A stretch of 64,000 nt of DNA, from contig OZ243952.1 of NCBI GenBank assembly GCA_965214615.1, forward strand, positions 2,125,734 to 2,189,733. The letters run 5' to 3'. The first letter of the stretch is position 1, and every line of letters starts with the position of its first letter. Source of the stretch: Arenicellales bacterium (GTDB taxonomy: Bacteria > Pseudomonadota > Gammaproteobacteria > Arenicellales > JAJDZL01). A program made the translations under genes and the position numbers. Below are positions 4,664-64,000 of the stretch, in pieces. The notes under the pieces are model-generated. The model did no database searches, was not told the origin of the DNA, and saw only the letters and a list, made by a program, of their open reading frames with translations.

Positions 4664-4664
4664 T

Positions 4665-6068
4665 TCATGGCAAGCAACGCAGACGTACAACGGTATCCGT
4701 CAAAGACACCAGACCAAGCCGACAAAAGTAAGCAATCGGGAAGGCTTGGTTCATGTGAGAAGCACCGCTGTTCCACCAAGGACCGTAGCCATTGGTGGCG
4801 GATTTCCACGCCCGAACCTCATCCAATCCCAACCGCATCAAGTTGCGAGCGCGTGTGAAGACACGCTTCCATTGCCGCCAGATGATACAGCGCAATTTGT
4901 GCCGTATCCACATGTCGAGTCTTCTCAACAGCACCTTCGCTTCAGCTAGCTTGAAATAGGCTGCCCATCCGCGAAGCAGTCGGTTAAGATGCTCAATCGT
5001 GTAGGTGAGACTTCGTCCGCGCGCACCGCGCAGAACCTCTCGCACCCTGGCTTTGAAACGCCTGCGGCTCTTAAATGAGATGCGCACGGTCGCCCGCGCA
5101 CCGCCCACAATGGTGTAGCCCAGAAATTGCCGTTTCGAAGGCCGCGCGACCGCGCTTTTGTCCTTGTTGACTTTCAGCTTCAACCGCTCCGCCAGAAACA
5201 CTTCCAGACTTTCCATCAATTTCAGGCCCGCTTTCTCACTGCGCACATAGATGTTGCAGTCGTCCGCATAACGGCAGAAACGATGGCCTCGCCTTTCCAG
5301 TTCCTTGTCCAGCTCTGTAAGCAGTACGTTGGACAGAAGTGGGCTCAATGGGCTACCTTGTGGCGTCCCGGTCCGGCGGGGCGAAACCACCCCGTCTGTC
5401 ATCATGCCTGCCTTCAGATACCGGCGAATCAACTTCAAAACCCGCCTGTCGCTCACCTTGCGAGACAACTTGCCCATCAAAATATCGTGATTCACCAGAT
5501 CGAAAAACTTTTCCAAATCCAAATCAACCACCCAGTTGCAGCCCGACTCAACATGCCGTTGCGCCTGACGCACCGCCTGATGCGCATTGCGACCCGGCCG
5601 GAATCCGTAACTGCTGTCACTGAAGTCCGGCTCGAATATCCCGCTCAACACCTGATGCAACGCCTGCTGAATCATTCGGTCCAGCAGTGTCGGTATGCCG
5701 AGTGTGCGAACCCCGCCTTGCGGCTTGGGAATGTCCACCCGACGAACTGGCGCAGGAATATACTCCTGTGCCAGCAGCTTGGCCTTGACCGTTGGCCAAT
5801 GCCGCTTCAGATGTGCTTTGAACTCGGCTACGCCAATGCCATCGACACCGGCACCGCCTTTGTTCGCACACACCCTGTCATAGGCTTTCTTCATGTTGGC
5901 AGGCGAAAGCACCGCCTCCATCAAATCGGCCTTTTGTGGCTGCGCTTTCGTCCGCGTCGGGTTCGCCGTTTCCGCCTCGACACCCAGCGCGGCTGTTGAC
6001 GGCTTCTGTCCGTCGCCTTCCGTCCGGGCCTGACCTTGTCGACCAGCTTGTGTCTTGTTCGGTTTCAT
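4665..6068 (-). CDS. group II intron reverse transcriptase/maturase (no endonuclease domain)
   Basis: RT blocks [32 protein letters not shown] and [13 protein letters not shown], and the catalytic [12 protein letters not shown]. Maturase X-like region [12 protein letters not shown]. The ORF ends at domain V with no HNH tail. Confidence 0.93.
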
Positions 6069-6529
6069 CGGGATTGTCCCTCGCCTACTCGCATCTTGCC
6101 ATGTTCAGCCCTTCAACCGCCGGTGAGCGGCCTACTATGGCTTCTGCTGACTTCTGCTGCCCCATCCCGCATCCTTTCGAATCCGGTAGCCATTGGCAGA
6201 GCAGCAGACCTCCCAGGGTAATGCGCGCGACCTTCCCACTTATGCCTGCCGCATATACGTCCACGGTTTCCGTACAAGTACCGGGCTTTGAAAATATTTG
6301 CCTTCTCACCCACCGTGACCGCCTCGTATGCGATTCCTGTTCGTCAGGCCAGTGGTTTGCCTTCAGCTTCCTTCAGATTCCGCTTCGCAGCGGACACCCT
6401 TGCCGTTCGGCTAACCGTTCCCCTTGTCGGGCCGGTAGCGGACTTGCACCGCCAGGTCATCCGACCACCACCACGTGTGTCGGAATAGCGCCAGTCAAGG
6501 CGCTGCGCGCCATGCCTGGCGCACAAGCC

Positions 6530-6616: not shown

Positions 6617-9600
6617 CTAGAACTTCAACTGGTATCCGATCATGGCTGCATGATAGTCCTCGCCATCAGCCTCCAATCCCGTCATTGCGAGTTTCCACAT
6701 GCCCTGAGAAGATCCAGGAGACTTTATCGCAGCGCCGAAGCTCAACTGGCTTACCGTCTCTGGCATAGACCTTACGCCGGCTTTCGTGTTGAAACTCAAA
6801 ATTCCGTCCTTGTCAGACTGGCGAAGAGTCAGATCGTTCACATCCTGAGAATTCGTGCGCATTACATCGAATCGCATGTGCGGCCTCCACTGAATGCTGC
6901 TCGCCGAATTCAGCCATTGGGTGGCTGCTATCCCGAAACCCAGCTTCGCAGATGTGTAATCCTGCGAGTAGGCGGGAACACTGGCTGTCATGACTGCACC
7001 ATGAGCATCATGTGCATCCTGTTCGAACGTACCTGCTTGAAACGCAGCTGACGGGCCGAATCGCAGACCATTGCTTATCCATGAAGTGCCAGCGCTAAGC
7101 TGAATCTGAGAACTTCGGATTCGCGAATTGCTGATTAGCGCACTGTTTATGACAGGATTGTCTACGACAGATTTCGCTTCGAAGTTGCCCTGTGACACAC
7201 GCAGGTTTGCAAAATGACGGTCGTTGCGCAGTCCACCATTGATCGCGTATGAACTGCCTTCGGCAGCAAATTTGAGCGAATCGACGGATCCGGAAACGTT
7301 CGGCATCATCGATGCTTCGATGTAATATCCGTTGTTTCCCTGCAAAGACAGGCCGATTTCAGAACCGCCGACAGACGCGTCAGAGGTTTCTGAAAATTCT
7401 CCGGTGCTGTTTCGTACCCACAATCGATACGGCGCATCGGTTGCCGCTCCTGATTGCTGAATGCTGCGACTGTCAGCCGAGGCAAAATATGACGAAACCG
7501 GCGAAGCAAACGCATGTGAGGTAAAACTTGTACCAGTATCGTCACCGCCAAGGAAATTGGATAGCAAGACTGCTAGCAGTCCCAAGCCGATCGCAGCACC
7601 GGCACCGCTGCCGGATCCGCCGCCACCACCTCCGGACGCACTGCCCGAACCACCTGCGGCAGGTCCTGATCCACCGGCACCCGGTTCGGGATTTTCAGGA
7701 AGCACGGCAACTCCGATATTACCCGCCATTTCAGAGTCAAAAGTCGCCACTGCGCCACTTTCAACCGTACCGACCATGTGAACTTCGCCGCCAGATTCCG
7801 ACAGAATCTGCAATTCGGTAACAACTTGCGGGGTGTCTGACATGTCTCCGCTAGTGATGCTATCAACAAATAGGATTGGGAAGATTTGATCTTCAGTGGC
7901 AATTTTAGTCTGAACACCTTCCACCATGTCAGGCTCTATGTCAGAATTCAGCTGGGCATAAACAGCCGCATCGGCGCTATCAATTCCTTCGAAGTGCAAT
8001 GTTCCGGCAAACAATTGCCCGGTAAATTTACCTTCATCATCGATATCAAACACCAGTTTTCCCGCCCGATGCACCGTCATTGTTCCTTGGTTTAAATTAA
8101 GACTTCCGGATACCACCAGCACTCCATTTTCGAGGTTCAATGCACTGTTTTCAAAAAAGACGCCGCCACTGAAGTGCGTAGTACCAGGACCGGTTATAGT
8201 CATTGTTTCTAGGCCAAAAATGTCACCCGTCAGATTGAACAGCCGATTTTCTGCAATGTTGATATTCATCTCATCATCACCACCCAAACCGAAATCTATC
8301 TTTCCATCGATCGAGCCGGATTCGGTGACATTCAAAACATCATCGAATGAACCGTCTGCAAACTGAACATTTCCGACAAGCGTGCTTGCAATCAGATCCA
8401 AGGTGCCCTTGCCGCCAATGAACATGACCGCATGCCCCTTTTCGTCCTGACTGGATCCGAACGCTGAAACTTTCGCGCCGCCGCTGACAGTCACCTTGGC
8501 ATGCCCGGTGGTTGAAGATACGCCTTGGGAAGAAAGTGCGGCCAGTATGCCGATACCAATTGTCTCGTTAAAGTCATTAGTGCTCGTATCGTCGCTCTCA
8601 GCGCCAAACGCCGTTATGTTGGCAGTGGCGCCCTTCACCTGAACGTCAACATCGACATCGGCGTCTACATCGTCGCTACTGCTGCTTGTATAAGCATTGG
8701 CCCGGATGCCGATTCCGAATTTTCGCGCTACAGGGGGTGTTGCATCCGGGTCGCCTTCGTTTCCAGCGGTTACCGTGCCCGTATTGATGACAACTACATT
8801 TCCGGAACCGTGTGACTCAACTCCTAAGCCCTCTGTTCGATTGCCGGTCGCCTTGACTGTTCCAGAGTTTGTAACTCGGGCGTCGCCGCCGTTTAGTATC
8901 CTTCCGGAATTTCTTGGATTGTGAAAGAAACCCGCGAAAACACCGCCTGTCAGCCAATCCGCGTTCCCGTTGCCGTTGACTGTGATAGTGCCGCTATTTT
9001 CAGCGTGCGCCTCTCCCTTTGCGTCGTCGATGTTTTCGGCTTCGTCGTGCCAAAAAGTCGCTTCAATGCCTTCGGAGCTATCGCCGTTGGTAATGATTGT
9101 GCCTGAATTGGACACTTTGACCATTCTGCCGCTTTCGGAGCCCGCCGGCGCGATGATTGAAGCGCCATCGGATTCATCTCCGTGCGTAGTGATCTTGCCT
9201 TCATTTGTTCCTCGCGCAATCTGCGACACGGCCCAGGTAGACATTCCGTGAGAATTGCCACCGTGGGTGATGATTCTGCCTGCATTGGATACCATCGCTG
9301 TTCCCGCACCAACTTCATTAGTCACTGCACGCACCCCGTGTGCTCCAGCAACCGTGGAATCTCCCTCGACGCCAGTTGTAATCTCTGCGTCTGATTGGTT
9401 GATAGCCGTAGCGTCACCGCTTTGAGCACCAGCATAAATTCCGTCGGCTCGATGGAAGTTTTCAGTACGATGCTCGAACATTCCGCCCGTAGTTGTAACG
9501 GTGCCGAAGTTTTCGACTTGTACATTACCCGTACCTTCGGTGTAGCCCGTCATTCCGCGTGCGCCTGTACCGCTCGTAGTAATTTTACCGGCAGATTCAT

Positions 9601-10486
9601 TGCGCAGTGAAATGTTGCCCGGAGAATCGTTCATGTGAGCACTTATGCCGTGGGCATTATAAACACCCGTCTCACCACCAAAATCATGTCCGTCACCGCT
9701 TGTTGAAATCTGCTTTCGGTTGATGATGTTGATGTCTCCGCCACCTTTCGGGGTAAGCGGGTCATCATCATATTCGCCAATATCAGCAGTCATTCCCCTT
9801 GCCGCCGTTCCTTGAGCGTCAATCATGCCTTCATTAACCAAGGTAATCGTGCCTGCACCGTCACCGATCCACGCATAGAATCCGTTCGCTACTCGATTTG
9901 GAAAATTTTCGCCTTCACCGCGTTGATGCGTGTTGCCGGTAGTCGTAATCGTCCCCTTGTTAGTCGCCATTACGTTTGCACCAAAATAGCTGCCTACTAC
10001 AAGACCCATACGACCATTACCACTGGACTCGATAATTCCATGATTTTCGACATCAAGATCGTAAGCTGTTCCACCGTCGGGATCAACATCAGATATTGAA
10101 ATCACAATACGATCAACTTCCGTGTCGTTGTTTGCCAACGAACCCGTGATGAACAACGTGCCCACTTCGGTTGCCGTGTCAATACGAAAAACTTCATTGT
10201 TATCGGTGCCATCCATGTCGATAATGACTTTTGATTTTCCCGCAACAAAACCAGAAGTAAAGGCAAACAAATCGACCCACCAGTCACGGTTTGCGACACC
10301 TTCCAAATCACCGTTACATGTGATTTTGAAGTCGGATCCGGTGTTGCTTTGTGAAAAGGGATTATCAGGATTGGATTGGAAATTTACGGTCCCGCGCTCG
10401 ATAGTGCAAGGAGACGTTTGTGAATGAGCTTGCAGGGGAAGAAGAAGCGTACATGCAAAAGCCAGTGACAATATTGCACTGGCCAA
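6617..10486 (-). CDS. autotransporter (type Va) outer-membrane protein with repeat-rich passenger. The listed start is a TTG; the true start is probably ATG 10583, out of frame at the G9 tract.
   Basis: Hydrophobic signal-like N-terminus [19 protein letters not shown]. At least 12 degenerate N-x-G-x-I-T-T-x-G passenger repeats. Gly/Ser linker [28 protein letters not shown]. About 280-aa C-terminal beta-barrel-like region ending ...GYQLKF (terminal aromatic). Confidence 0.85.
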
Positions 10487-51403: not shown

Positions 51404-52081
51404 AGTTGTTCTCAGTTCGATTAATCAGCAATTCACATTTTGAGTTCTACGCGAATCATTCTCATGCGTGCGCTATGTACTCATTGACGGCCGCATGCCA
51501 CCGTCCTCACAGGCAGGCGCGGCTATCCGCATGCAGCGACCGTATTCGCCACATGCGCTCCAGCCAAGTCGCAAGTACTGACTGCGGCAGACTGTTTGCA
51601 AAATACGCAATTCGCCGACGCTGCTGCGCAGGAACGCACATGCCCTGGGAAACTGTATGCGGCGCTGCAACTGATTTCACGGTAGGCGGCTCTGCGAACG
51701 CATACTATATCAAAAAGGTTATGGCTAAACAAATATCATAATAATATATAGTTATGAGCTTTTTATTAACGTTAATTGATTAATCGGGAGATGGTTTGAA
51801 AACAACCTCAGAACTGCCGGTGCACCATTTGCAAACCGCCGTCGCGCCTTGAAAAATGTCGCGGAATTCCATTGACTCATCTTCTGGCATTGCCTAAATA
51901 TCGGCACAGACTTGAAATTCGCAGTGACGTGCTGCCGTGATTCACCGACAGCATGGTCGGCTCACTAAATTTTCCACGAAATCGCGGACGAACCTGTAAA
52001 ATCCCGATACTGCCGCGGCGTCTCTTTGGACGCTGTGCTCACCCGTTGCATTCTTGCGAACTCATCAATTCAATTGTCGCC

Positions 52082-53800
52082 ATGAAGAAAATCATTTTGA
52101 ACATCGGCGCATTCCTGGCACTTGGCATCGTCACCGGCGGCGACAGCGACCTTGCCAGCGCCGACGACGGATCTGAATCCCGATACATGGTAGCCGCAGC
52201 ACATCCCGACGCCGCCAAGGCCGGGCTGGAGATGCTGCGTCAAGGCGGAAGCGCGTTCGATGCAGCGATTGCTGTTCAGGCGGTGCTGGGACTGGTCGAG
52301 CCGCAAAGTTCCGGAATCGGAGGCGGCGCTTTCGCGGTCTACTACGATGCAGCGACGCGGCAGACGGTTACGTTTGACGGTCGTGAAACAGCCCCATTTC
52401 GCGCCATGCCCGATTTGTTTATGGACAGCGACGGAAATCCAATGGATTTTTTCGAAGCCGTCCTAAGCGGCCGCGCAGTCGGCACGCCCGGAGTCCTGGC
52501 AATGCTTGAGATGGCGCACTCGCAATACGGCACCCTTCCCTGGAACACGCTGTTCAAGCCTGCGATCAGTCTCGCACAAAGCGGGTTTGTTGTCGCAGAC
52601 CGATTGGCCCAATTGGTTTCCGGTCGCAGTGGCGAGCGGTTGAAGATGTTTCCGGAATCGGCAAATTACTTCTTTCCGGACGGCGAGCCGCTTGCCGCCG
52701 GGAGCGTCAAGCGAAATCCCGCCTATGCGGATACGCTGAATGAAATTGCAAATTCCGGTGCACAGGCTTTCTATGACGGGCAGATTGCTCAGGACATGGT
52801 TCATGCCGTAAGTTCGCTGCAAGGACGAAGCGGCCTGCTGACCCGGGTCGACCTGCACGAATATCGGGCGCTGAGACGACCGCCGATATGCCACCGGTAT
52901 CGCAGTTATCAGGTATGCGGAATGGGGCCGCCGAGTTCGGGCGCGCTGACGGTTGGACAAATTCTTGGAATCTTGGAAAATTTCGACCTTCAGTCTCTAG
53001 GTCCCCGGAATCCGGCAAGCTGGCATTTGATCGCCGAGGCATCGAAACTCGGTTTCGCCGATCGAAATTATTACATCGCCGATACCGATTTTCTCAATGT
53101 GCCGTTAGGGGGTCTGCTGGATTCGGAGTACTTAAGGCAGCGCGCTTCCTTGATTGCACGTGATTCGGCGATAAATGTTCCGGCACCCTATGGCGCGGCG
53201 CCGGACTCAGAACTGTCCGGGTTCTCTGGCGATACGCATTCCGGGCGCAGCGGCACGACACATTATTCAATCGTCGATGCCAAGGGCAATGCCCTGTCGC
53301 TGACTTCGAGCATAGAAGGGCCTTTCGGCTCCCACCAGATGGTTCGGGGGTTTATGCTCAACAATCAGCTCACCGACTTTTCGTTTATTCCCGAAAGGGA
53401 TGGCAACCTCGTAGCAAACCGTGTGGAACCTGGAAAAAGGCCTCGAAGCTCGATGTCTCCGACCATAGTATTCGACACAGATGGGAACTTGCGGCTTATC
53501 GTAGGCTCACCGGGCGGCAGTCGAATTATCGGCTACGTGGCAAAGACACTCGTCGCGGTGCTCGATTGGGGCTTGCCGCTTCAATCAGCCATCGATTTGC
53601 CGAATCTTGTCAATCGAAACGGCGCAACCGAATTGGAACGCGGGACCGGCACAGGGAAACTTCAATCGCAACTCGAAAGCCTTGGCCATCAAGTCAGCCT
53701 GCGCGCGATGGCGAGCGGGATATACGGCATTGAACTGATACGCGGAATGTTGCATGGCGGCGCCGACCGGCGGCGCGAAGGTGTGGCAATCGGGAAATAG
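52082..53800 (+). CDS. ggt: gamma-glutamyltransferase precursor
   Basis: Signal peptide MKKIILNIGAFLALGIV. Autoprocessing/catalytic Thr region GRSGTTHYSIVD. Small-subunit blocks MSPTIVF and VGSPGGSRIIGYV. The start is taken at ATG 52082. Confidence 0.9.
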   Translation: MKKIILNIGAFLALGIVTGGDSDLASADDGSESRYMVAAAHPDAAKAGLEMLRQGGSAFDAAIAVQAVLGLVEPQSSGIGGGAFAVYYDAATRQTVTFDGRETAPFRAMPDLFMDSDGNPMDFFEAVLSGRAVGTPGVLAMLEMAHSQYGTLPWNTLFKPAISLAQSGFVVADRLAQLVSGRSGERLKMFPESANYFFPDGEPLAAGSVKRNPAYADTLNEIANSGAQAFYDGQIAQDMVHAVSSLQGRSGLLTRVDLHEYRALRRPPICHRYRSYQVCGMGPPSSGALTVGQILGILENFDLQSLGPRNPASWHLIAEASKLGFADRNYYIADTDFLNVPLGGLLDSEYLRQRASLIARDSAINVPAPYGAAPDSELSGFSGDTHSGRSGTTHYSIVDAKGNALSLTSSIEGPFGSHQMVRGFMLNNQLTDFSFIPERDGNLVANRVEPGKRPRSSMSPTIVFDTDGNLRLIVGSPGGSRIIGYVAKTLVAVLDWGLPLQSAIDLPNLVNRNGATELERGTGTGKLQSQLESLGHQVSLRAMASGIYGIELIRGMLHGGADRRREGVAIGK

Positions 53801-53867
53801 CAAAGACAAAAGTTCCAGCACAGCGAGGATGCGCGACCCTTGCATAATCCCACCAGAACCTGCGCAC
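53228..53867. repeat. direct repeat copy 1 (ggt 3' end plus about 70 nt downstream)
   Basis: 53228-53766 matches 55694-56232 at a constant offset of 2466 nt with scattered substitutions. Similarity continues with indels to about 53867/56310. Confidence 0.9.
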
Positions 53868-53896
53868 TTGAAGAGGGTTCTGTGGCGTAAGAAACA

Positions 53897-54910
53897 CTAG
53901 TCGGTGTTCACTTTTTCTTGAAACTTCTGAACTACTTTCACAATTTGTTCAAATGTCGGAACAACGCCATAGAACATCTCTTGCTGCATGCTTTCGTAGT
54001 CGGATTTCCAAGTTGTCCAATCAGTTTCTACAGGTGTCAACTGTAATTGCCCGTGGTCCATTGCTGAATAGTCGACCCACGTATAGTGAAAATAAACTTG
54101 ACGGTGAGCAACAATCTGACTGCGCAAATCCATATCCTTGTATGCCTGATCACCCACCCCTGCCCGAATCAGACGGTAAAGATCATAGTAATGACGCGCC
54201 ATACCTTTGCGGTTTCTTCTATTTGATTGCGGTCGCATGGATTCTTCATGCAGGAGCATAGCCTTTTCCCAAAAGGTGCGTTTTGGCATCACCGCTCTGA
54301 CATTGGTGCCGGGTTCGTGCAACAATCTCGGAAAGGCATCGCTGATATAAGGCTTGATCTCAATAAACTCAGCAGGTTCCGTATCCGAACGAGCACCCAT
54401 TTCTATCTTTACGGCACGACGAAGATAATCAGCCTGCTCCAAAAAGGCTGACGGATAAAGCAGCGACAAAGTCTGTTCATCGGGGTCGTCAGGATCAAAT
54501 TCAAGTACGAGCCCGATATCCAGTGAAATTGCCTCATTCAGTGCCGGAAAAATATCGTCCCTGATGCATTGCTGGCACGACGCTTTCAATTTCTTGAGAC
54601 GTTTACCCAACTGTTTCCTGCTCGGTGCCTGATCCGGTGAATGGTCTCCACCAAACCCCAGCACAGTCCGGTCAATCACAATATCTATATCTTCGGAAAA
54701 ACGCTCGATTAGTTTCCAGCACTTGGATAATGATGTACCTCCCTTGAATGTGAATTGCTCACCCCAATTAGGCAGTCCAAACAGCTTGCGCAACGTCCAG
54801 CAAACCCAAAAGTCCTTTTCAACCGCAACCGCGGAAAGATTCAGCTTTGCACTGGCCTCTTCGCAGATCAGTTGGCGCTGTTCTTTCGGTAATGCTACAA
54901 ACTCCTTCAT
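53897..54910 (-). CDS. abiEii: AbiEii/AbiGii-family nucleotidyltransferase toxin (type IV TA / abortive infection)
   Basis: NTase motif [24 protein letters not shown]. 337 aa. 4-nt overlap with the upstream abiEi-like gene. Confidence 0.85.
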
Positions 54911-55530
54911 GCTGCACTTTCCGAAAGAGCAAGCTTGCGGATGATATCGGCAATCCAGGCAGGTGCATACCGGATATCCTTCATCAAGTGTTGGAGGGTG
55001 TCACTGCTTAGGCGGCGAGCAAGCTGTTCAATGACTCGCTGATCAACGTTTTCCCGACCCAGATAACGTAGTGCCTGGATTACCAGTCCACTACTTCTCC
55101 CTGCAGTGGCCATGTTACGGGAAGATGTGTGCTTCAGCATGATCTGACGCGAACCAATTTGGACTGTCCGCGAGCAACCGTCTGTCAGATAAACAACCCT
55201 GGTGGGCACTTGCGTAGAAAGCCCCAGCAGGTTCGCCGCATAGGCCCCGGAAGGTTGCAAGCGCGTGGCGTCTCGACTTGCCAAGGCATTTGCGATGTCA
55301 TCGGTCGATGGTTGCAGAATACCAAACTGAGGATCCGTTTTCGGATAGTCATAAAGCCCTCGGGACAGTTGTCGGATAAAACCGTTTTTGCGATGCCGCA
55401 TCAGCGCGATATCTATTGCTCGGCGGGTCCCAAGATCCGCAAAACTGTCAGGCGTAAAAACCCAGCCTCGACCACGGGAACGAATCCGACGAAGGATCTT
55501 GTGATCGGCACTATTCGCGTGCTTACCCAT
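54907..55530 (-). CDS. abiEi: AbiEi-family antitoxin-like protein (winged-helix N-terminus)
   Basis: [54 protein letters not shown] is the typical AbiEi/DUF6088 N-terminus. 207 aa. Confidence 0.8.
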
Positions 55531-55693
55531 AATGGAACTCTAATTTATGAAAGATAATCAGTTATATTTTTCTTTCATTATTTTAGCATGTTTCAATCAA
55601 CTATTAATATCTTAATGAGAAAATTCTATGGCTGTGAACAATAGTTTTGACCCGCACGTCCGTCTTGCGACAAAGCGGTTTGATCGTTGAATT

Positions 55694-56242
55694 GGCGATG
55701 TCCATTCCAGGCGCAGCGGCACGACCCATTTTTCAATCGTCGATGCCAAGGGCAATGCCCTGTCGCTGACTTCGAGCATAGAAGGGCCTTTCGGCTCCCA
55801 CCAGATGGTTCGGGGGTTTATGCTCAACAATCAGCTCACCGACTTTTCGTTTATTCCCGAAAGGGATGGCAACCTCGTAGCAAACCGTGTGGAACCTGGA
55901 AAAAGGCCTCGAAGCTCGATGTCTCCGACCATAGTATTCGACACAGATGGGAACTTGCGGCTTATCGTAGGCTCACCGGGCGGCAGTCGAATTATCGGCT
56001 ACGTGGCAAAGACACTCGTCGCGGTGCTCGATTGGGGCTTGCCGCTTCAATCAGCCATCGATTTGCCGAATCTTGTCAATCGAAACGGCGCAACCGAATT
56101 GGAACGAGAGACCGGCACAGGGAAGCTTCAATCGCAACTCGAGAGCCTTGGCCATGAAGTCAGCCTACGCGCGATGACGAGCGGAATATACGGCATTGAA
56201 CTGATACGCGGAGTGCTGCATGGCGGCGGCGCGAAGGTGTAA
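55694..56242 (+). pseudogene. duplicated 3' fragment of ggt (small-subunit region), lacking a start and with a deleted C-terminus
   Basis: In-frame reading GDVHSRRSGTTHFSIVDAKGNA...GSPGGSRIIGYV...IRGVLHGGGAKV*. A TGA lies 2 codons upstream of the homology. There are 7 aa differences from the intact copy, and the conserved tail ADRRREGVAIGK is lost. Confidence 0.88.
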
Positions 56243-56310: not shown

Positions 56311-56447
56311 ATGCCGAAAAACTAAAGACTCTAGAAACGCCTGCAGCTAAGGTTTCTGGTTCATTTTGCAAATCAATTCCGCGATATGCAATAGTGAATG
56401 TCAAAATTAGGTATTTTCGAAATGAATCGTGTATTATCGTCTTTTCT

Positions 56448-56612
56448 GTTTGAGGTGTTTGCCACCCATTGATCCGAATAACGGTGGCAATTTAAACGGG
56501 AAGTTTGGTGAGCGAAGCCATTGACTAGGATCGGCTTCGCAATTCCAACGCTGCCCCCGCAACGGTAATCAGCTTCATTGCTGCGAGTCCGGAACCGCCC
56601 TCTGACAGGCCA
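56448..56612 (+). promoter_or_regulatory. cobalamin (B12) riboswitch aptamer
   Basis: Conserved core strings in the correct order: AACGGGAAGTTTGGTGAG, then an inserted hairpin CGAAGCC...GGCTTCG, then CAATTCCAACGCTGCCCCCGCAACGGTAA, then a B12-box-like GAGTCCGGAACCGCCC. It lies about 110 nt upstream of the cobN-like ATG. Not verified with a covariance model. Confidence 0.75.
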
Positions 56613-56718
56613 TGAAATACTGTTTTAGCGGAGGGCTTTAACGTGGCAGTCAAGATTACCGCCTCCAAATCCCTCTTGCGCAGTTCTCGCTCGCTTTCTC
56701 TAGAGGGGTCAGACTCCG

Positions 56719-59700
56719 ATGTGCTCACCTGCAAGAGCTTCCGAAGTGATACATTCGGCCGCATCGCCTTGGTCTGCCTTGCATTCGGCTTGCTCGGATT
56801 TTCTCAGGAATAACAGCATTGCCGTTTCAACGCACGCGACTTTGTCGTCAGGTGCAAATTCCGCGTGCTTGCTCGCGCTCCTGATTCTAATGCCGAACAT
56901 CGCTTCGGCGGCAACCATCTCAGCGGTTGTCTCTGCGCGCAACGCTGCCGCTGTCGCAACTGGCAGCCATAAGTTTTTGCAAGACCATGCGGAGCATCAT
57001 CTGAAACTCAAGACAACTGATCAATTTGTCGAAATGTCCCAGACGCAGCAGAAACAATGGCTTGAATCGGCGGACCTGGTTTTCGCAGGAGGAGTGTTCG
57101 GAGCCGCCGGAGAAAACCTGCTCGCAACACTGCGCCAAAACCTGCTGCGCAACTTCATCGCAGTTCACTCTGATCGTCGGCTGGTCAATTCATCCGTGCT
57201 GCACGGGCAACGTATTCTTTCGGATGCAAAACTCGACCAACTGATGCAGGATCCTGCTGTCGATGAGGACACGCAAGCCTGGATTTCGGACATGCTGCAA
57301 CAGCATAGCGCACATAAGTCCTGGCTCCTCGCCCGATTGTTCTGGAGCGGGCGAGGCACAGAAAACATGGCAGGACTGTTTGCTCACCTGGCGTCATTGG
57401 CCGGCGATAGCATCTTCGTTCCATCTCCAACCCCGTCCGCTCCATTGCGCACCTACTATCGCCAAACAACCGGTCATGCATCCAGGTTCGCCGAGTTGGC
57501 AAGCCAAAGCGCAAAGCGCTGGGTCGTAATACTCGACTACGAAACTGGCGACAAACTGGGATCGTCGGAATTGCTTGATGACCTTTGCGACCAAATTAGG
57601 ACGGATGGCACGGAATGCATCTCTCTGCTGGCGACCTGGGGAGATGCCAGCGTGGCGGCAATACGGATGCTTGACCAGAACATATCCAAGATTGCCCTTA
57701 TTGTTTCGCTGCAGAACTTTGTCATAGGCGGCGGCGAAGGTCGGGCTGAAGTCAATGCTGCACTCAGCGAACTGGACGTGCCAGTACTGAAAGGCATCCG
57801 ACTCAGCGATCGTACCGAACAGGTCTGGCGGCTATCAGAGGACGGAGTCCCATGGGACAGCGTGCACTATCGAATTGCCATGTCAGAGATTCAAGGAGTT
57901 GCAGAGCCAACGATACTGTCCGTCAGTACCGCTCCAAAAATTGATGAGCTGACCGGAATCCGAATCACACAGCAAAAACCAGTCGTCGATCAAGTCGAAA
58001 GGCTTGCTCGAAGAGTAAAAAACTGGATTGCATTGCAAGAACTGCCCAATGCGGACAAAAAGATCGCAGTAATCTACTACAACCACCCTCCCGGCCGGCA
58101 TAACATCGGCGCAGACAACCTGAACGTGCCATCAACTGTTTTTCATCTATTGAACTCATTGAAAGACGAAGGATATGACGTTGGCCAATTGCCGGATACC
58201 GAAGAGCAGTTGCTGGATATCCTGCAGGATCGCGCAGTCAATCTTCCGGAAGACGGCGAAGCCTTGTCCGACATGTCCCGGCGGGTGGTGGGCATTTCGC
58301 CTGGCAAGTATCAGCGCTGGTATGAGTCGATGCCGGCCGCGCTGCGTCAAGAGCTGGAAAACGGCCCGCTCGGCTACCTCAATGCGGTCTTGCGGCAAAC
58401 AAGCGGCGCTGCATGGGACGATAGCGGTCAAGCCGCGGAATCGCTTCGCACGCGGGTCATCGAGGACTTGCGTCACATTGTGGACGGCGCCGACCATCCT
58501 GCACGACTTCGGGTACTCAATCTATTGGATCAACTCGAACAAGCATACGCATCGCAAGATATTGACTGGGAGTTGTCGCAAAGTCTGATTGAAGCGATCG
58601 CAGGGAGCGGAATTGAAGGTCTGCGCGGCTGGGGGCCTGCACCGGGACAAGTTATGGTTCATGACGGTTCGCTGGTCATTCCCGGTGTGCAGTTCGGTAA
58701 CGTATTTGTCGGCCCGCAACCGCCTCGCGGATGGGAGCTGAACGAAGAACTGCTGCATGCCAATCTTTCGTTTCCGCCACCGCATCAGTATCTGGCTTTC
58801 TATCTGTGGCTGCAAAACGAGTTTGAAGCCGACGCGCTGGTGCACTTGGGACGCCATTCGACTTACGAGTTCTTGCCGCGGCACAGGGCGGGCCTTGGCG
58901 CGCAAGACTATCCCACAGCGGTACTGGGAGATTTGCCGAGCATCTACCCCTACATCGTTGACGGCGTCGGAGAAGGCATTCAGGCAAAGCGACGCGGTTT
59001 CGCCGTCATGGTCGACCACCTCACACCGCCGCTGGACAGCACGGACTTGTACGATCGGCTCCTGGAACTAAGGCAACTGGTCGAAAGCTACGAGTCAGCC
59101 TCGCACGGCAACAGCGCATTGCGATCGCGAACCGTAGGCGAGATCAAGAAATTGGTTGAAGAATTGAATTTAGCCGAAGAGATGCTCGAAGCCATGGCCG
59201 GAGAATTGTCGGTCCGAGGCATCACGCAGTTCGATCAGATCGATGACGAGCTGCTGGTTCATGAGGTCGGGCACTATCTGACCAAATTACAGGAACAGTT
59301 CATGCCACTGGGTCTGCATACATTCGGCAGCAACTGGTCTGATGAGGCGGTGGAGGTCATGATCCGATCCATGACAAAAAGCTCAAATCCTCATGACATG
59401 GACCAAGCGACAAACATCTCGCCTGACGATGCCGCAGATTGGCGCGAGCTTCTGCGAATTTCGCCAGCATCCGAAATCAGCGCCCTGCTGGCCGGACTTA
59501 GGGGGAGCTACGTCAAGCCTGGCAAAGGCAACGATCCCATAAGAACCCCGGAAGTGCTGCCGACCGGGCGCAATTTCTTTGCGCTCGACGGAAGCTTGAT
59601 ACCCTCGCCTGTCGGCTACCAGCTCGGAGTTGAAATGGCTGCGTCTGCCAGACTTATGAGAGCTGAAGACACTCAGGCGAACGCCCTGGTTCTTTGGGCA

Positions 59701-61233
59701 TCCGACACGGTACGTGACGAAGGCGCAATGATCGCTTTCGGCTTCGACATGCTAGGGGTCAAGCCAATTTGGAACAGCCGAGGCATATTCAAGGGACTCG
59801 AACGCTTGAATTTGGACGGAGCACTGGACGCAGATCGTCCGCGCGCACGGCACGACATGGTGTTTACCACTTCCGGGTTGTTTCGCGATCTGTATGGCGC
59901 GCAGCTTGTCTGGTTGCAGCGCGCTGTATTGATGGCACTGGATGCATCTGCAATCCTAATTCAGCAGAACTATCCGGCATTGACAGCCGCATTGAATCAT
60001 GCGCTTGCGCCTCTTGGCGAGTTGCGCAATCCGGGCTCAGAGTCGCTCTTGCACAATCACGTCGCCGCGCGGTGGGTGGACGATGCGCGTGAAGCGCTTG
60101 CAGGGGGCGCAGCGCCGTTGATGGCTGGAAAGGAGTCTGCGTACCGGGTTTTCGGCGCTCCTCCGGGAGCCTACGGCGCAGGTGTCAATCGTGTGATTGA
60201 GCGCTCGGGAAGCTGGGAGCAGCGCCAGGAAGTCGCGCAAGTGTATTTGAACCGGATGGGACACGTTTACGGCGAAAGCCAATCAGGCGAACCGCGGCAG
60301 GAAATTTTCCGGCAACGCCTCAAAAGCGTATCAAATGCCTATCTTGGCAGATCAAGCAACTTATACGGGGTACTGGATAACAATGATTCATTCGACTATC
60401 TTGGCGGCTTGAGTCTGGCTATTGAAACACAGCGCGGCGAAGCCCCGCACAGTCATATCGTTTCGCATGCTGGCGGAAGCAATTATGCCATCGAGCCCTT
60501 GCGCCTTGCCATACTGCGCGAGTTGCGCGGCCAACACTTAAATCCTCAATGGCTTGAGCCTTTAATGGATGAAGGCTATGCCGGGGCCCGCACCATGGGC
60601 AGCGAGTTTCTGGAATACCTATGGGGATGGCAGGTAACCAATCCGGGCATAGTCAAATCCTGGGTCTGGGATGAAGTGAAAAGCGTATACATCGACGACC
60701 GTCTGGAACTGGGACTTGACGAATTTCTGGAAGACAGACATAACGCCCACGTTCTCGCCAACATGCTGGCAATCATGCTGGTATCGGCTCAGAAGGAGTT
60801 CTGGGAAGCAAGCGCGGAAACGATCGCCGAGCTTGCGGACAAGTTTGCAGATTTAATTCTCGCCAACGGCTTGCCGGGCAGCGGCCACACCACCCCGTCG
60901 CATCCGCTCTACGACTGGCTTGAAGACTATGTTTCAGACGAAAAGTACCTGCAATTACGCGAAAAAGTGACTGCCGCCCAGATCGTCTATCAGGTTGACA
61001 AGGGGCCGCAAGAAATATCTGAAGTCGTACTGCAAAACGAGCAAGTCGATACATCTGTGCCGCAACAGCAATCAGCGCAACCCGAACCCGAAAACGCAAG
61101 TGAACCGACGCAATTGCAACTGCCAACGCTTCCCATCCTGCTTGCCGCCTGCATAGTGCTGATCTGCATCGGCTGGTTCATCGGCACTGTAAGTGTGAGG
61201 CGCAGGCATTCTCGGAAGGTGATCAATGTTTAG
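56719..61233 (+). CDS. CobN/ChlH-family (class I chelatase large subunit-like) protein with N-terminal export-like segment and C-terminal membrane anchor
   Basis: CobN blocks VIYYNHPPGRHNIG, GRHSTYEFLPRHRAGL, GEGIQAKRRGFAVMVDHLTPPL and EVLPTGRNFFALD. N-terminal ACLLALLILMPNIASA. C-terminal LPILLAACIVLICIGWFIGTV followed by RRRHSRK. SD AGAGGGG lies 10 nt before ATG 56719. Confidence 0.85.
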   Translation: MCSPARASEVIHSAASPWSALHSACSDFLRNNSIAVSTHATLSSGANSACLLALLILMPNIASAATISAVVSARNAAAVATGSHKFLQDHAEHHLKLKTTDQFVEMSQTQQKQWLESADLVFAGGVFGAAGENLLATLRQNLLRNFIAVHSDRRLVNSSVLHGQRILSDAKLDQLMQDPAVDEDTQAWISDMLQQHSAHKSWLLARLFWSGRGTENMAGLFAHLASLAGDSIFVPSPTPSAPLRTYYRQTTGHASRFAELASQSAKRWVVILDYETGDKLGSSELLDDLCDQIRTDGTECISLLATWGDASVAAIRMLDQNISKIALIVSLQNFVIGGGEGRAEVNAALSELDVPVLKGIRLSDRTEQVWRLSEDGVPWDSVHYRIAMSEIQGVAEPTILSVSTAPKIDELTGIRITQQKPVVDQVERLARRVKNWIALQELPNADKKIAVIYYNHPPGRHNIGADNLNVPSTVFHLLNSLKDEGYDVGQLPDTEEQLLDILQDRAVNLPEDGEALSDMSRRVVGISPGKYQRWYESMPAALRQELENGPLGYLNAVLRQTSGAAWDDSGQAAESLRTRVIEDLRHIVDGADHPARLRVLNLLDQLEQAYASQDIDWELSQSLIEAIAGSGIEGLRGWGPAPGQVMVHDGSLVIPGVQFGNVFVGPQPPRGWELNEELLHANLSFPPPHQYLAFYLWLQNEFEADALVHLGRHSTYEFLPRHRAGLGAQDYPTAVLGDLPSIYPYIVDGVGEGIQAKRRGFAVMVDHLTPPLDSTDLYDRLLELRQLVESYESASHGNSALRSRTVGEIKKLVEELNLAEEMLEAMAGELSVRGITQFDQIDDELLVHEVGHYLTKLQEQFMPLGLHTFGSNWSDEAVEVMIRSMTKSSNPHDMDQATNISPDDAADWRELLRISPASEISALLAGLRGSYVKPGKGNDPIRTPEVLPTGRNFFALDGSLIPSPVGYQLGVEMAASARLMRAEDTQANALVLWASDTVRDEGAMIAFGFDMLGVKPIWNSRGIFKGLERLNLDGALDADRPRARHDMVFTTSGLFRDLYGAQLVWLQRAVLMALDASAILIQQNYPALTAALNHALAPLGELRNPGSESLLHNHVAARWVDDAREALAGGAAPLMAGKESAYRVFGAPPGAYGAGVNRVIERSGSWEQRQEVAQVYLNRMGHVYGESQSGEPRQEIFRQRLKSVSNAYLGRSSNLYGVLDNNDSFDYLGGLSLAIETQRGEAPHSHIVSHAGGSNYAIEPLRLAILRELRGQHLNPQWLEPLMDEGYAGARTMGSEFLEYLWGWQVTNPGIVKSWVWDEVKSVYIDDRLELGLDEFLEDRHNAHVLANMLAIMLVSAQKEFWEASAETIAELADKFADLILANGLPGSGHTTPSHPLYDWLEDYVSDEKYLQLREKVTAAQIVYQVDKGPQEISEVVLQNEQVDTSVPQQQSAQPEPENASEPTQLQLPTLPILLAACIVLICIGWFIGTVSVRRRHSRKVINV

Positions 61234-61684
61234 CGGCTACACAATCGGATTTCTTCACTTTGTTGTCGGCTGGCTGCTTCAGCCGGTTATTTGGGCGCTT
61301 ATGGCGGTCACGGTCTGGGCACTTGTAGAACTCGGGATACTTCTTGCAGAATATTTTCGGACGCTGAAAGTGCTGCGCTTGGACGCAGATCACGCATTTG
61401 TCGAGCATCTGGCTAAGCGCCGAATTGACCACTGCGACTTTCTGGCGAGAATCGCGCCAATGCTGGGCCTGATGGGAACCCTGATCCCTCTCGGCCCCGG
61501 CCTGGCCGCATTGGGCGAGGGAGAGCTTACGATTCTTTCAACCGCAGTCAGCGTCGCATTCGACACAACTGTACTGGGGTTGCTTGTGGGAATTAGCGGA
61601 TTCGTCATGGGCAGACTTCGGCGGCGGTGGTACGACGAACTGCTCACCGAACTGGAAGCTGGGCAAAGCGAGCGCAAGACATGA
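61226..61684 (+). CDS. small MotA/TolQ/ExbB-family proton-channel protein
   Basis: 152 aa with 3 hydrophobic helices. Family signature region APMLGLMGTLIPLGPGLAAL ... VAFDTTVLGLLVGI. The start overlaps the cobN-like stop (ATGTTTAG). Confidence 0.72.
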   Translation: MFSGYTIGFLHFVVGWLLQPVIWALMAVTVWALVELGILLAEYFRTLKVLRLDADHAFVEHLAKRRIDHCDFLARIAPMLGLMGTLIPLGPGLAALGEGELTILSTAVSVAFDTTVLGLLVGISGFVMGRLRRRWYDELLTELEAGQSERKT

Positions 61685-61974
61685 ATCGGCGCTGGGACCG
61701 CGGGCGTTTTTCTGGAGCAGATGATGAATCTCACGGCCCGCTGGCCAATCTGCTCGACCTTATGCTGGTCTTCGCATGCGGACTGATTGTGGCACTGGTG
61801 GCGATGAGTTCTCAGTTGCAAGATTATTTTACTGTCGCACCGCAAGAAATTCACAGAGGTCAGGAACTGCCTGAATTGCCGCAAAGCGGCGAGCGCGGAG
61901 GCGCAGGAATGGTTCCTGTCGGACAAGTCTATCAGGATCCTGAAACCGGAAAGCTAATTCTATTGCGAGAATGA
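61681..61974 (+). CDS. DUF2149-like single-TM protein with ExbD/TolR-like acidic transmembrane helix
   Basis: 97 aa, reading MNRRWDRGRF...GPLANLLDLMLVFACGLIVALV (Asp inside the TM helix, as in ExbD/TolR). The start is taken at the ATGA overlap with the preceding stop. The track ORF starts earlier, at 61627, inside the previous gene. Confidence 0.6.
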   Translation: MNRRWDRGRFSGADDESHGPLANLLDLMLVFACGLIVALVAMSSQLQDYFTVAPQEIHRGQELPELPQSGERGGAGMVPVGQVYQDPETGKLILLRE

Positions 61975-62124
61975 TATGCAACAAGCGTATTCGATCATTC
62001 ATTCGACAGGGCTAGGTTTTTTAGGCAGTCGATACCTGCGAAGTTCTCCCAGTCTCATTCAAAACTGCAAACTCAAAACTGAATCTATGGCACCAGTCTG
62101 TCTTACATCTAAATTGGAGGAAAT

Positions 62125-64000
62125 ATGAACAAATTCATTCTATGTCTCGTTGCTTTTGCACTTTCGCTTCCCGCAGCGCTAGCGCAGCAAGTAGAAAATG
62201 AAAGCGATCAACCGGAAGTCGTCGTCACTGCTACGCGCATAGCGACTCCGCTTCGCGATACCATAGCAACAACTGAAGTCATCACTGCGCAAGAAATTGA
62301 ACGAACCAAGCCCCGAGATCTCGGGACTCTGCTGTCAAGAAAAAGCGGCTTGAGCTTCCGCGATAGCGGTGGCAAAGGCTCGAGAGGAGGAATTTTTGTA
62401 CGCGGAACAGACGAGAAGCATCTTCTTGTTTTAATCGATGGCATGCGGACCGCGAGCGCCACACTTGGCCTAACAGCAATTGAGCGAATTCCGCTCGAAA
62501 TCATCGAACGCATCGAAATCGTCAAAGGCCCAATGTCCAGTGTCTATGGCGCTGACGCCGTTGGCGGAGTGATTCAGATATTCACCAAGAAGCCGCATCA
62601 GGCTGGCACCTACGGCTCCGTCAAAACCTCGGTCGGTTCGAATCGTGAACGCAAGTACACCGCTCAAGCCGGATTCGGGGAAGATCAAGTCAGTATGTTT
62701 GTTTCTGCAACTAAAGAGTCGACTGATGGAATTGATCGAACAAAATACAAAGGCGGAGGAAACGAGGACAAGGACGGATTCAAGCGCAGTTCTGGAAATC
62801 TTTCGCTGACCACTTTCTTACAGGACGATCTAGAATTGAATCTGACTCACTTTCGTAGCGTTTCAGTGCTGGACTACGACAACATCTCAACGAGTTCATC
62901 GGAAAGCCGTGGACGTGAGCACAAGGGCAGAAATTGGCACCAACGCTTCGAATTGAGTACTACATCGGCTAGGATAGACTACGATCATTCATCAGACTTG
63001 AACTTTTCGGCGATCATCGGAACCGCCACAGACAACCGCCAGGATTTGAAACCTGATCATCCTACGAATGATTCCCGCCGCACCCACTTCAAGACTCGCA
63101 AATCGGACTACTCGCTTCAAGCAAACTGGATTGCGTCTTCGAGAGATCAGGTGTCAGTCGGCGCCGAATATCAGCAGGACAAAGTTGATTCAACTGACAC
63201 CTACGCAAATGATGAACGTACGAATAAAGGATACTTCGCACTCTGGCAACACCAACGAGAACGGTCTGCAACAGTAGCCAATGTGCGGCACGAAAGAAAC
63301 GACACCTACGCATCGGAGACGAATTACAACATTCAGCAATCCTTCGATATTTCCGATACCTACCAAATTGCGGCAAATTACGGCACAGCTTTCCAAGCCC
63401 CGAGCCTCAATGAATTGTTCTATGAGGAAGATTTCTTTCGCGGCGATCCGGACTTGAAGCCGGAAGAAAGCAAGTCAACTGAGGTTTCGTTGCGATCACA
63501 GCACGACGATTTGCACTGGAAATTAAGCCTATATCACACGACAATAGAAAATTTGATCGTCTGGAAAGGGTTTCCGTCCTCGCCCGTCAATGTCGACGAG
63601 GTAACTTTGAAGGGCGTAGAAATCGAATTGACTAAGGAGTGGAATGATAATATCTTCAACTTCAGCGGAGACTATCTCGAAGCATACGACGACAAAACCG
63701 GTAATTTCCTTGACGATCGGGCACGCGGTTCGGCTTCGATTGAACTTGGCAGGCAGATCGGAAAAATCTTTGTTGGCGCTAATGCATTCTACGAGCATTC
63801 TCGATTTGACCGTGGGAGCAATTTAGGAAATTATGCGATCTACGGGATAAACGCGGAATACAAATTTTCAGATAACTTGATCATCTCAGGGCATATCGAT
63901 AACTTATTCGACAAGGACTACACGACAAATCTCGCCAGCGACGACAATCCCTATAAAAATGAAGGAAGGACGTTCGAGATTTCAATGGAATACAGATTTT
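62125..64000 (+). CDS. btuB: TonB-dependent outer-membrane receptor, BtuB-like; stop codon lies just beyond the window
   Basis: Not in the ORF track because no stop is reached. GGAGG SD lies 4 nt before ATG 62125. Signal peptide MNKFILCLVAFALSLPAALA, TonB box PEVVVTATR, plug block GIFVRGTDEKHLLVLIDGMR ... IEIVKGPMSSVYGADAVGGVIQIF. The last codons read ...FEISMEYRF (terminal aromatic), giving 625 codons in-window. Confidence 0.85.
   Translation, partial: MNKFILCLVAFALSLPAALAQQVENESDQPEVVVTATRIATPLRDTIATTEVITAQEIERTKPRDLGTLLSRKSGLSFRDSGGKGSRGGIFVRGTDEKHLLVLIDGMRTASATLGLTAIERIPLEIIERIEIVKGPMSSVYGADAVGGVIQIFTKKPHQAGTYGSVKTSVGSNRERKYTAQAGFGEDQVSMFVSATKESTDGIDRTKYKGGGNEDKDGFKRSSGNLSLTTFLQDDLELNLTHFRSVSVLDYDNISTSSSESRGREHKGRNWHQRFELSTTSARIDYDHSSDLNFSAIIGTATDNRQDLKPDHPTNDSRRTHFKTRKSDYSLQANWIASSRDQVSVGAEYQQDKVDSTDTYANDERTNKGYFALWQHQRERSATVANVRHERNDTYASETNYNIQQSFDISDTYQIAANYGTAFQAPSLNELFYEEDFFRGDPDLKPEESKSTEVSLRSQHDDLHWKLSLYHTTIENLIVWKGFPSSPVNVDEVTLKGVEIELTKEWNDNIFNFSGDYLEAYDDKTGNFLDDRARGSASIELGRQIGKIFVGANAFYEHSRFDRGSNLGNYAIYGINAEYKFSDNLIISGHIDNLFDKDYTTNLASDDNPYKNEGRTFEISMEYRF

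Follow-up and report, generated by a model that had tools for sequence, protein, structure and literature searches.

A 64,000-nucleotide (nt) stretch of DNA from an Arenicellales bacterium (GenBank assembly GCA_965214615.1, contig OZ243952.1, positions 2,125,734 to 2,189,733 of the forward strand; here called the window) carries an operon that is led by a cobalamin riboswitch and encodes a CobN-like protein, two small membrane proteins, and a BtuB-like TonB-dependent receptor. We found that the CobN-like protein is, by sequence, a sister of the haem de-chelatase HmuS and not HmuS itself, and that it is almost always encoded together with the two small membrane proteins (the three genes are referred to as the trio). 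Our preferred reading, held tentatively and with somewhat less than even confidence, is that this system is a proteobacterial, corrinoid-linked counterpart of the hmu locus of Bacteroidota, in which a proton-driven stator would power periplasmic CobN-like chemistry on the metal centre of a corrinoid. The cluster type has already been described and is widespread, and the window provides a further case. The operon and its leader comprise the following features.

56436-56617, + strand: cobalamin (adenosylcobalamin [AdoCbl]-type) riboswitch aptamer (Rfam RF00174, 55.1 bits vs gathering score 31.5, E=6e-11, model positions 1-189 of 189)
56618-56718, + strand: expression platform and leader, read from the sequence, with a Shine-Dalgarno-like AGAGGGG at 56702-56708
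56719-61233, + strand: CobN-like (BtuS/HmuS-branch) class I chelatase homologue, 1504 amino acids (aa) as called (PF02514)
56863-56910, + strand: signal-peptide-like hydrophobic core and ASA/A site of the CobN-like protein, residues 49-64 (ACLLALLILMPNIASA), from homologue alignment
61135-61191, + strand: predicted C-terminal transmembrane (TM) helix of the CobN-like protein, residues 1473-1491 (Kyte-Doolittle 2.7 over 19 residues), then the basic tail RRRHSRK
61226-61684, + strand: ExbB/TolQ/MotA-family (HmuU-type) small membrane protein, 152 aa, about three TM helices (PF01618)
61681-61974, + strand: DUF2149 (HmuV-type) protein, 97 aa (PF09919, 36.1 bits vs cutoff 27.1)
62125-64000, + strand: BtuB-like TonB-dependent receptor, 625 codons, ending in MEYRF with the stop codon beyond the window (Plug and TonB_dep_Rec_b-barrel)

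Relationship of the CobN-like protein to HmuS

The original prediction described the first gene as a 1504-aa open reading frame (ORF) of the CobN/ChlH family, which Pfam confirmed (PF02514, CobN-Mg_chel, E=5e-245, 816.5 bits vs gathering score 24.5). Its start is uncertain: the ATG at 56719 lies 10 nt past the AGAGGGG and gives an unconserved 48-residue N-terminal extension, and a TTG at 56842 is an alternative. The protein falls below every NCBIfam CobN/BchH equivalog cutoff (best is NF004645, 611 vs 1619; TIGR02257, 512 vs 822). Its best match in the PDB is HmuS (9d26), which scores 365 bits when the single sequence is searched and 495 bits when a family profile is used; ChlH and CobN structures rank after it, at 330-338 bits in the single-sequence search and 427-437 bits in the profile search. 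There are more than 500 homologues. The best 120 are 49-99% identical and around 1450 aa long, and those from named organisms are marine Gammaproteobacteria, in which the protein always bears the label "cobaltochelatase subunit CobN". Among genomes, Arenicellales metagenome-assembled genomes come nearest, at 70-71% identity.

HmuS is an NADH-dependent haem de-chelatase with a cryo-EM structure published in 2025; it needs a His-538/Glu-577 dyad for turnover, and its H538A variant is dead (PMC12583661). H713 and E752 of the window protein align with these two residues. All 115 of 115 homologues have the GRHSTYEF motif that contains H713, and a 15-sequence alignment shows no variation at E752. 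The catalytic His/Glu dyad of the superfamily is thus retained at the level of sequence. Other positions differ. The haem ligand His-254 of HmuS (HGR) is a Glu in the window protein (GGGEGR), and among the 74 homologues where the motif was found this position is Glu in 65 and Asp in four. The head region around HmuS Met-79 does not align with the CobN-like protein, the Met-rich insertion (about 120 residues in HmuS) is absent from it (at most four Met per 60-residue window), and the region aligned between the body domains of HmuS is about 100 residues shorter. Asp-1208/His-1209 of HmuS correspond to N1222-D1223, part of a D-N-N-D pattern present in 115/115 homologues, where CobN has D-S-D-D. 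Because the features that define HmuS (His-254, the Met-79 region, the Met-rich insertion, and Asp-1208/His-1209) are missing, we place the protein beside HmuS and not within it.

Just past the chelatase domain, residues 1384-1396 (nt 60868-60906) form a near-invariant family motif, GLPGSGHTxPxHP. HmuS has CSGFVC at the position of GLPGSGHTxP, and CobN lacks such an extension. From its sequence, the motif is possibly a metal hand-off site.

Predicted export and membrane tethering of the CobN-like protein

An export-like N-terminal segment, a C-terminal anchor followed by RRRHSRK, and hence an envelope location of the CobN domain had been proposed for the window protein. Both segments are present and are conserved in about 90% of 115 homologues, and the family-wide N-terminus, TM helix, and positive tail, as read from hydropathy, support the location. 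All 15 diverse homologues that we aligned have a short Sec-type signal peptide with a small-x-small end just before a conserved ATLxAIVSxRN, and the window segment ending in LILMPNIASA/ATISAVV aligns with these signal peptides. A hydrophobic export segment occurs in 104 of the 113 full-length homologues, and most exceptions look like mis-called starts. The C-terminal TM helix is found in 108/115 homologues and a net positive tail after it in 111/115. L1481, G1485, and G1489 of the helix are invariant in the 15-sequence alignment. The helix is preceded by a stretch rich in Q, E, S, A, D, and P, with a median of 73 residues between the GLPGSGHT motif and the helix. Since both the signal-peptide-like N-terminus and the C-terminal helix with its positive tail are conserved, the chelatase body should face the periplasm and be tethered to the membrane. 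The conserved L..G...G pattern in the anchor helix and the TonB-like extended linker suggest that the helix has a specific helix partner.

The two small membrane proteins

The second and third genes had been predicted to encode an ExbB/ExbD-like pair, and this stands in part. The 152-aa protein belongs to the MotA/ExbB family by Pfam (PF01618, 41.4 bits vs 22.9, profile positions 34-126 of 127) and scores under the NCBIfam ExbB and MotA equivalog cutoffs. A profile of its family gave weak PDB matches to MotA (E=0.0025) and to ExbB/TolQ (E about 0.5-0.7), all over TM2-TM3, the region that holds the family invariants PxxGLMGTLIPLGPG and AFxxTVxGL. An exact-sequence look-up of this protein returned no match.

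In the DUF2149 protein, a basic N-terminus is followed by one TM helix and then by a periplasmic tail of about 50 aa that ends in a conserved beta-hairpin. The helix carries the motif NLxDxMLVFA, whose Asp (D26) is invariant both in 22 and in 40 sequences; N23, L29-V30-F31, and G34 are further invariants. A single-chain AlphaFold2 model of low confidence (predicted local distance difference test score of 59.6) places a helix at residues 21-42 and a hairpin at residues 83-94. The Asp-bearing helix was therefore correctly noted, but homology to ExbD/TolR did not follow from it. We found no Pfam or NCBIfam ExbD match at E<=0.01 and no ExbD or TolR in a PDB profile search at E<=10. An hhalign comparison with approximate ExbD/TolR seed sequences aligned 15 TM columns only (P=0.008, probability 5%). 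Because the likeness is limited to the TM helix, "ExbD-like" denotes a functional analogy for DUF2149 and not a demonstrated homology.

The two start/stop overlaps of the trio are exactly as originally claimed: an 8-nt overlap, ATGTTTAG, at 61226-61233, with the ATG of gene 2 and the TAG of gene 1, and an ATGA at 61681-61684 between genes 2 and 3. The translational coupling read from them holds less generally, as the overlap between genes 1 and 2 is specific to the window, and the corresponding matches in relatives lie about 10-300 nt apart.

Conservation of the trio and its corrinoid-related neighbourhood

Relatives that share the signature motifs YYNHPPG and PQPPRGWE are carried by at least 544 matched stretches of species-representative genomes. 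We took the 80 best loci related to the window cluster as a census sample and examined up to 10 kb on each side of the relatives; neighbouring genes were named by Pfam or by likeness to Pfam-labelled genes. These loci come mainly from marine Gammaproteobacteria and also from Nitrospirota, Nitrospinota, Binatia, and Campylobacterota. By tblastn, the order CobN-like, ExbB-like, DUF2149 is intact in 77/80 loci; two of the exceptions reflect a contig end or a divergent arrangement. Of the 80 loci, 38 include a TonB-dependent receptor, and where both flanks span at least 8 kb, the count is 25/49. Among the closest relatives, a second riboswitch stands before the receptor gene itself. The small proteins thus track the CobN-like gene and not the receptor, and this synteny is the strongest argument for the proposed link between a motor and the chelatase.

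No AAA+-type Walker A ORF of at least 150 aa was found in the 64-kb window. Within 10 kb of the trio at the 80 loci there is no recurrent Walker-A/P-loop family, and an approximate ChlI seed had no match either. The reported lack of an AAA+ chelatase gene is therefore borne out in the window and, past its end, in relatives.

Recurrent neighbours of the trio include BtuF, BtuC, BtuD, BtuR/CobO, CobU, CobT, CobC, CobS, CbiB, and CobD, as well as a BluB-like nitroreductase, CobB/CbiA, CobQ, and a PduO-type adenosyltransferase. Relatives at 70% identity, from which the order downstream of the window was read (a 99%-identical contig, L001, ends no later than the window), extend it as BtuB, BtuR, BtuC, BtuD, CobU, CobT, CobC, CobS, CbiB, and BtuF. 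Together with the conserved riboswitch, these genes for corrinoid uptake, salvage, and remodelling, CbiZ included, uphold the link to corrinoids that was drawn from the window alone.

Nine to ten loci have a CbiZ-like amidohydrolase gene and a carbon-nitrogen hydrolase (CN_hydrolase) gene directly 3' of DUF2149, and both products have signal-peptide-like N-termini. The loci are L011, L012, L013, L016, L017, L046, L048, L061, and L062 (and L018). The CbiZ-like proteins are about 410-445 aa long (the Pfam CbiZ profile has 191 positions) and the carbon-nitrogen hydrolases about 290-325 aa. The apparent export of both hints at corrinoid remodelling in the periplasm.

In two other loci (L029, 6983-9584, and L005, 19953-22453), genes for a Zur-like FUR-family regulator and a COG0523/CobW-type GTPase adjoin a riboswitch-led trio, and L029 also has ZnuA. 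These neighbours echo the regulation by Zur of the Pseudomonas aeruginosa operon PA1922-PA1925 and suggest a link between zinc, cobalt, and B12. Cobalt permease genes do not recur beside the trio in the census loci.

Riboswitch control

The leader had been described as cobalamin-riboswitch-like. It passed the covariance-model check, matching RF00174 over its full length well above the gathering score. We found neither an intrinsic terminator nor a promoter consensus around the leader, and because of the missing terminator, control of translation is likelier than termination. An upstream CCCUCU stretch could pair with the AGAGGGG Shine-Dalgarno sequence, judging from complementarity; the predicted fold of the platform is no better than that of shuffled sequence and lends this pairing no support.

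Riboswitches in related loci were counted over 81 loci with an iterated nhmmer profile, as the MAFFT alignment was too ragged for a covariance model. By this profile, 53 loci have a riboswitch immediately 5' of the CobN-like gene, 19 have one at another place in the locus, and nine have none. When the six weakest direct matches were rechecked with Rfam, three passed and three failed, so that 53/81 should be taken as an upper bound, with about 47-50 as the safer figure. Among 12 Rfam-checked loci, six of which had been picked as the weakest profile matches, seven have a riboswitch directly 5' of the CobN-like gene and two more have one elsewhere, which mostly means before the receptor gene.

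Some Arenicellales relatives have up to three cobalamin riboswitches within 9 kb (L002/L020, 6811-15532; L003, 9661-15484). In L002/L020 they precede a gene for an 811-aa protein that carries TonB_C at its C-terminus, the trio, and a BtuB-salvage operon. In L003, Rfam detected riboswitches before the trio and the BtuB-salvage operon and none before the TonB_C gene. The giant, B12-regulated TonB-like protein of L002/L020 is unusual.

The TonB-dependent receptor

The cluster was said to close with a BtuB-like receptor, and the sequence matches point the same way: the protein has Plug and barrel domains, and its best NCBIfam model is TIGR01779 (TonB-B12), which matches over the full length with 397 bits, below the cutoff of 599.7. 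This is more than twice the score of the next-best kind of receptor model (haem/haemoglobin, 183 bits). A Shine-Dalgarno sequence (GGAGG) precedes the ATG, and the 150-nt spacer between trio and receptor contains no riboswitch.

The GC fraction of the receptor gene is 0.46-0.49 and that of the trio 0.54-0.56. The receptor is about 50% identical to the L003/L020 receptor, and the trio proteins are 70-84% identical. From these values, the receptor seems to be an exchangeable module. On the 99%-identical contig L001, the receptor gene was called as a 449-aa product and a separate 52-aa fragment.

Proposed mechanism and alternative explanations

In the proteobacterial hmu counterpart that we propose, scarcity of AdoCbl would let the leader permit translation. 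The chelatase body of about 155 kDa would be exported and would hang in the periplasm by an acidic, Pro- and Gln-rich linker of about 70 residues and the C-terminal helix, which would dock on a stator-like assembly that the ExbB-like protein forms with DUF2149 and its Asp-bearing helix. Proton flow through these two proteins would replace the conformational work of the AAA+ proteins CobST/ChlID, and the body would act on the metal centre of a corrinoid delivered by BtuB-type receptors. The original prediction of an envelope machine that inserts or removes metal and is energised by the proton-motive force is thus supported for its location, its link to corrinoids, and the lack of AAA+ partners, while the drive and the metal chemistry are plausible extrapolations.

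As to the reaction, CobN-like loading or exchange of cobalt is favoured over removal, given the CobN-like D-N-N-D pattern, the missing electron-relay haem site of HmuS, and the many salvage loci; forward class I chelation is, moreover, the reaction known to require energy from outside. Even so, we regard such loading or exchange as doubtful. Removal of the metal, as in HmuS, is rather less probable still, and the loci with salvage operons speak against it, because destruction of corrinoids would not help there. By analogy with the Fur-controlled hmu locus and the Zur-controlled PA1922-PA1925, removal of cobalt nonetheless keeps a small probability. In its fullest form, which we think somewhat unlikely, the proposal is that a proton-driven stator replaces the AAA+ motor and that cobalt chemistry takes place in the periplasm, either the insertion of cobalt into metal-free corrinoids taken up from seawater or its removal from a corrin, which would be the first enzymatic case known, with a remodelling line that includes the exported CbiZ-like protein and CN_hydrolase in some lineages.

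Several observations weigh against a chelatase driven by its small partners. Metal-free corrinoids are rarely reported as free substrates, and cobalt removal from a corrin has no known precedent. In the literature we found no experiment on any B12-linked member of the family. The topology calls are hydropathy heuristics combined with alignment. DUF2149 lacks the periplasmic domain of ExbD and could not be assigned to the ExbD/TolR family (PF02472) by homology. A TonB_C gene lies near the trio in L002/L020, L003, L021, and L051, the only such cases in the 80 loci. The cluster of Geobacter lovleyi, likened here by its published description, includes a tonB gene, which the window cluster does not (PMC3403914). 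The soluble body of HmuS turns over haem in vitro with NADH and without partners, so that a motor is not chemically obligatory in the family, and the authors of that study assign HmuU and HmuV to powering the receptor HmuR (PMC12583661).

These last points lead to the best-surviving alternative, which has a modest chance of being right: the trio would be two things, with the ExbB-like and DUF2149 proteins, together with TonB, energising the BtuB-like receptor, and the CobN-like protein working on its own in the periplasm, as an enzyme or a binder for the imported corrinoid. In its favour are the way in which HmuU/HmuV and HmuR have been modelled, the partner-free activity of HmuS, and the tonB gene of the G. 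lovleyi cluster. So does the riboswitch-led gene for the 811-aa TonB_C protein, which lies directly 5' of the trio in the closest relatives. The window receptor, moreover, combines a Plug domain with an N-terminal stretch, EVVVTATR, which we take to resemble the TonB box of Escherichia coli BtuB. On the other hand, the small proteins accompany the CobN-like gene in 77/80 loci, when a receptor is in reach in about half; TonB_C genes are confined to the few loci named above; DUF2149 has no ExbD-type periplasmic domain; and the separate riboswitch of the receptor gene in the closest relatives makes it transcriptionally separable from the trio.

A second alternative is a non-catalytic receiver of corrinoids, which would take the ligand from BtuB, or hold it for the CbiZ-like protein or amidase, and pass it to BtuF, with proton flow driving release only. 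Class I chelatases have head and neck domains similar to periplasmic binding proteins (PMC12583661), the trio lies among genes for BtuF, BtuCD, and the exported CbiZ-like protein and CN_hydrolase, and expression at low B12 only would fit scavenging. The invariant His/Glu dyad and the many other invariant residues of the body favour chemistry over binding, though, and BtuF is already the binding protein in the same loci, which makes this alternative quite unlikely.

We consider it improbable that the module serves metal acquisition by stripping cobalt (or zinc) from some imported chelate other than a corrinoid, as a supply for B12 synthesis or for enzymes starved of metal. The main precedent is PA1922-PA1925 of P. 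aeruginosa, which is Zur-regulated, rises 45-147-fold on zinc depletion, and was proposed as the cause of raised cellular cobalt (PMC4542158, PMC9431628). Likewise, Zur-like and COG0523 genes lie next to the riboswitch-led trio of both L029 and L005, with ZnuA in L029, and B12 riboswitches often control cobalt importers (PMC7689651). Against this, the BtuB-type model is far ahead of others for the window receptor, the trio of many loci lies inside a corrinoid salvage operon, and no cobalt permease genes recur beside the trio.

Finally, the database label shared by all named homologues and the Pfam CobN-Mg_chel domain would make the protein the usual CobN, a cytoplasmic subunit of the cobaltochelatase in aerobic B12 synthesis, a candidate that we rejected as scarcely credible in view of scores far under the equivalog cutoffs, the heuristic calls of a signal peptide, a C-terminal TM helix, and a positive tail, membrane proteins as obligate partners, and the lack of a nearby AAA+ gene of the CobS/CobT or ChlI/ChlD type in the window or the 80 loci.

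Implications

The label "cobaltochelatase subunit CobN" inflates genome-based estimates of how many organisms make B12 by the aerobic route. If the small partners do drive the large protein, this would be a new way of powering a class I chelatase and a new client for motors of the ExbB/ExbD type, and it would alter current ideas on the sharing of corrinoids and cobalt in seawater that is poor in cobalt. The demonstration in 2025 that HmuS is a true de-chelatase makes the B12-linked branch directly testable. To what was known of these clusters we add the strictness of the trio relative to the receptor, the extent of riboswitch control in the clade, the residue-level differences from HmuS, and the exported CbiZ-like and amidase neighbours.

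Other features of the window

Upstream of the riboswitch, the window contains a full-length gamma-glutamyltranspeptidase (GGT) gene (51953-53800), an AbiEii/AbiEi (DUF6088) toxin-antitoxin pair on the - strand (53897-55530), and a 145-aa fragment of the GGT C-terminus (55805-56242) that ends about 200 nt before the riboswitch. From this arrangement, 51953-56242 resembles the scar of an insertion or rearrangement. The closest relatives have a TonB_C gene at the position of the AbiE/GGT-fragment region.

A complete group II intron is located at 4594-6394 on the - strand (Rfam RF02001, RF01998, RF00029), with a reverse-transcriptase/maturase ORF (4665-6068, - strand, RVT_1 and GIIM), and adjoins an isocitrate lyase gene. 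Right beside it is an ORF of 1289 aa (6617-10486, - strand) with no Pfam family at E<=1e-5.

Comparison with known systems

The hmuYRSTUV locus encodes a CobN-like protein together with a MotA/ExbB protein (HmuU) and a DUF2149 protein (HmuV) (PMC10434189), so that the parallel to HmuS and hmu, which the original prediction had drawn, is correct. HmuS has predicted N- and C-terminal TM helices (PMC12583661). The likeness to the window extends to a CobN-family protein of about 1450 aa with terminal TM helices, a C-terminal extension past the canonical chelatase domain, a TonB-dependent receptor, and genes of the HmuU and HmuV type. Unlike hmu, which is under iron control, the window operon is under a B12 riboswitch, and its receptor is BtuB-like and not of the haem type. 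It has equivalents of R, S, U, and V and lacks HmuY and also HmuT, since there is no gene between the CobN-like and ExbB-like genes.

Read as a novel type, the cluster does not stand, as it had already been noted (Rodionov et al. 2003, as cited in PMC6460266; PMC3403914; PMC10100974). BtuS was distinguished as a third type of CobN-like protein, with a proposed role in metalloporphyrin salvage (Rodionov et al. 2003, as cited in PMC6460266), and a periplasmic location is predicted for BtuS1/2 of Bacteroides fragilis (PMC6460266). Cobalamin riboswitches were also reported in front of Hmu-like operons, for which a role in cobalamin metabolism was suggested (Mesle et al. 2023, PMC10100974). The window protein agrees with the definition of BtuS as cited in PMC6460266, being distinct from CobN and ChlH and encoded in a B12-regulated btuB-type cluster. 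It further shares with the Bacteroides proteins (PMC6460266, PMC10100974) a predicted periplasmic, membrane-anchored location, TonB-receptor clusters, some of them preceded by riboswitches, and a proposed role in salvage. The published experiments, by contrast, concern only haem iron in Bacteroides, and the clade of the window, which is about 50-70% identical within Proteobacteria, Nitrospirota, and Nitrospinota, has no HmuT.

The G. lovleyi plasmid pSZ77 has cobN-exbB-exbD-tonB between cobalamin gene clusters, flanked by TonB-dependent receptors; the genome lacks CobS and CobT, and its authors proposed that this CobN has a distinct, cobalamin-related function (PMC3403914). PA1922-PA1925 of P. 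aeruginosa likewise combines a TonB-dependent receptor, a CobN-like protein, a MotA/ExbB-type protein ("ExbD"), and DUF2149 in one operon, as compared by gene types, and differs in being controlled by Zur and zinc and not by B12. Riboswitch matches are carried by the Pseudomonas/Azotobacter members of our sample (L047, L050, L053, L064).

With CobNST and ChlHID (PDB 9uk9, 7c6o, 4zhj), the window protein has the PF02514 body and the His/Glu dyad in common. Those enzymes are cytoplasmic, are driven by the AAA+ protein CobS or ChlI with the adaptor CobT or ChlD (bioRxiv 10.64898/2026.07.21.739949), and have no signal peptide, TM helix, or C-terminal extension. With the TonB-ExbB-ExbD, TolQRA, and MotAB systems, the window trio shares a MotA/ExbB channel protein and a single-pass protein with an essential-looking Asp in its TM helix. 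As in the TonB-type stators, there is also a third protein, whose tether consists of one TM helix and a long, extended linker. The trio differs from these stators in that the ExbB-like protein has only 152 aa and a short cytoplasmic loop, DUF2149 is without the periplasmic domain of ExbD, and the tethered protein is anchored at its C-terminus and bears a chelatase body in place of TonB_C.

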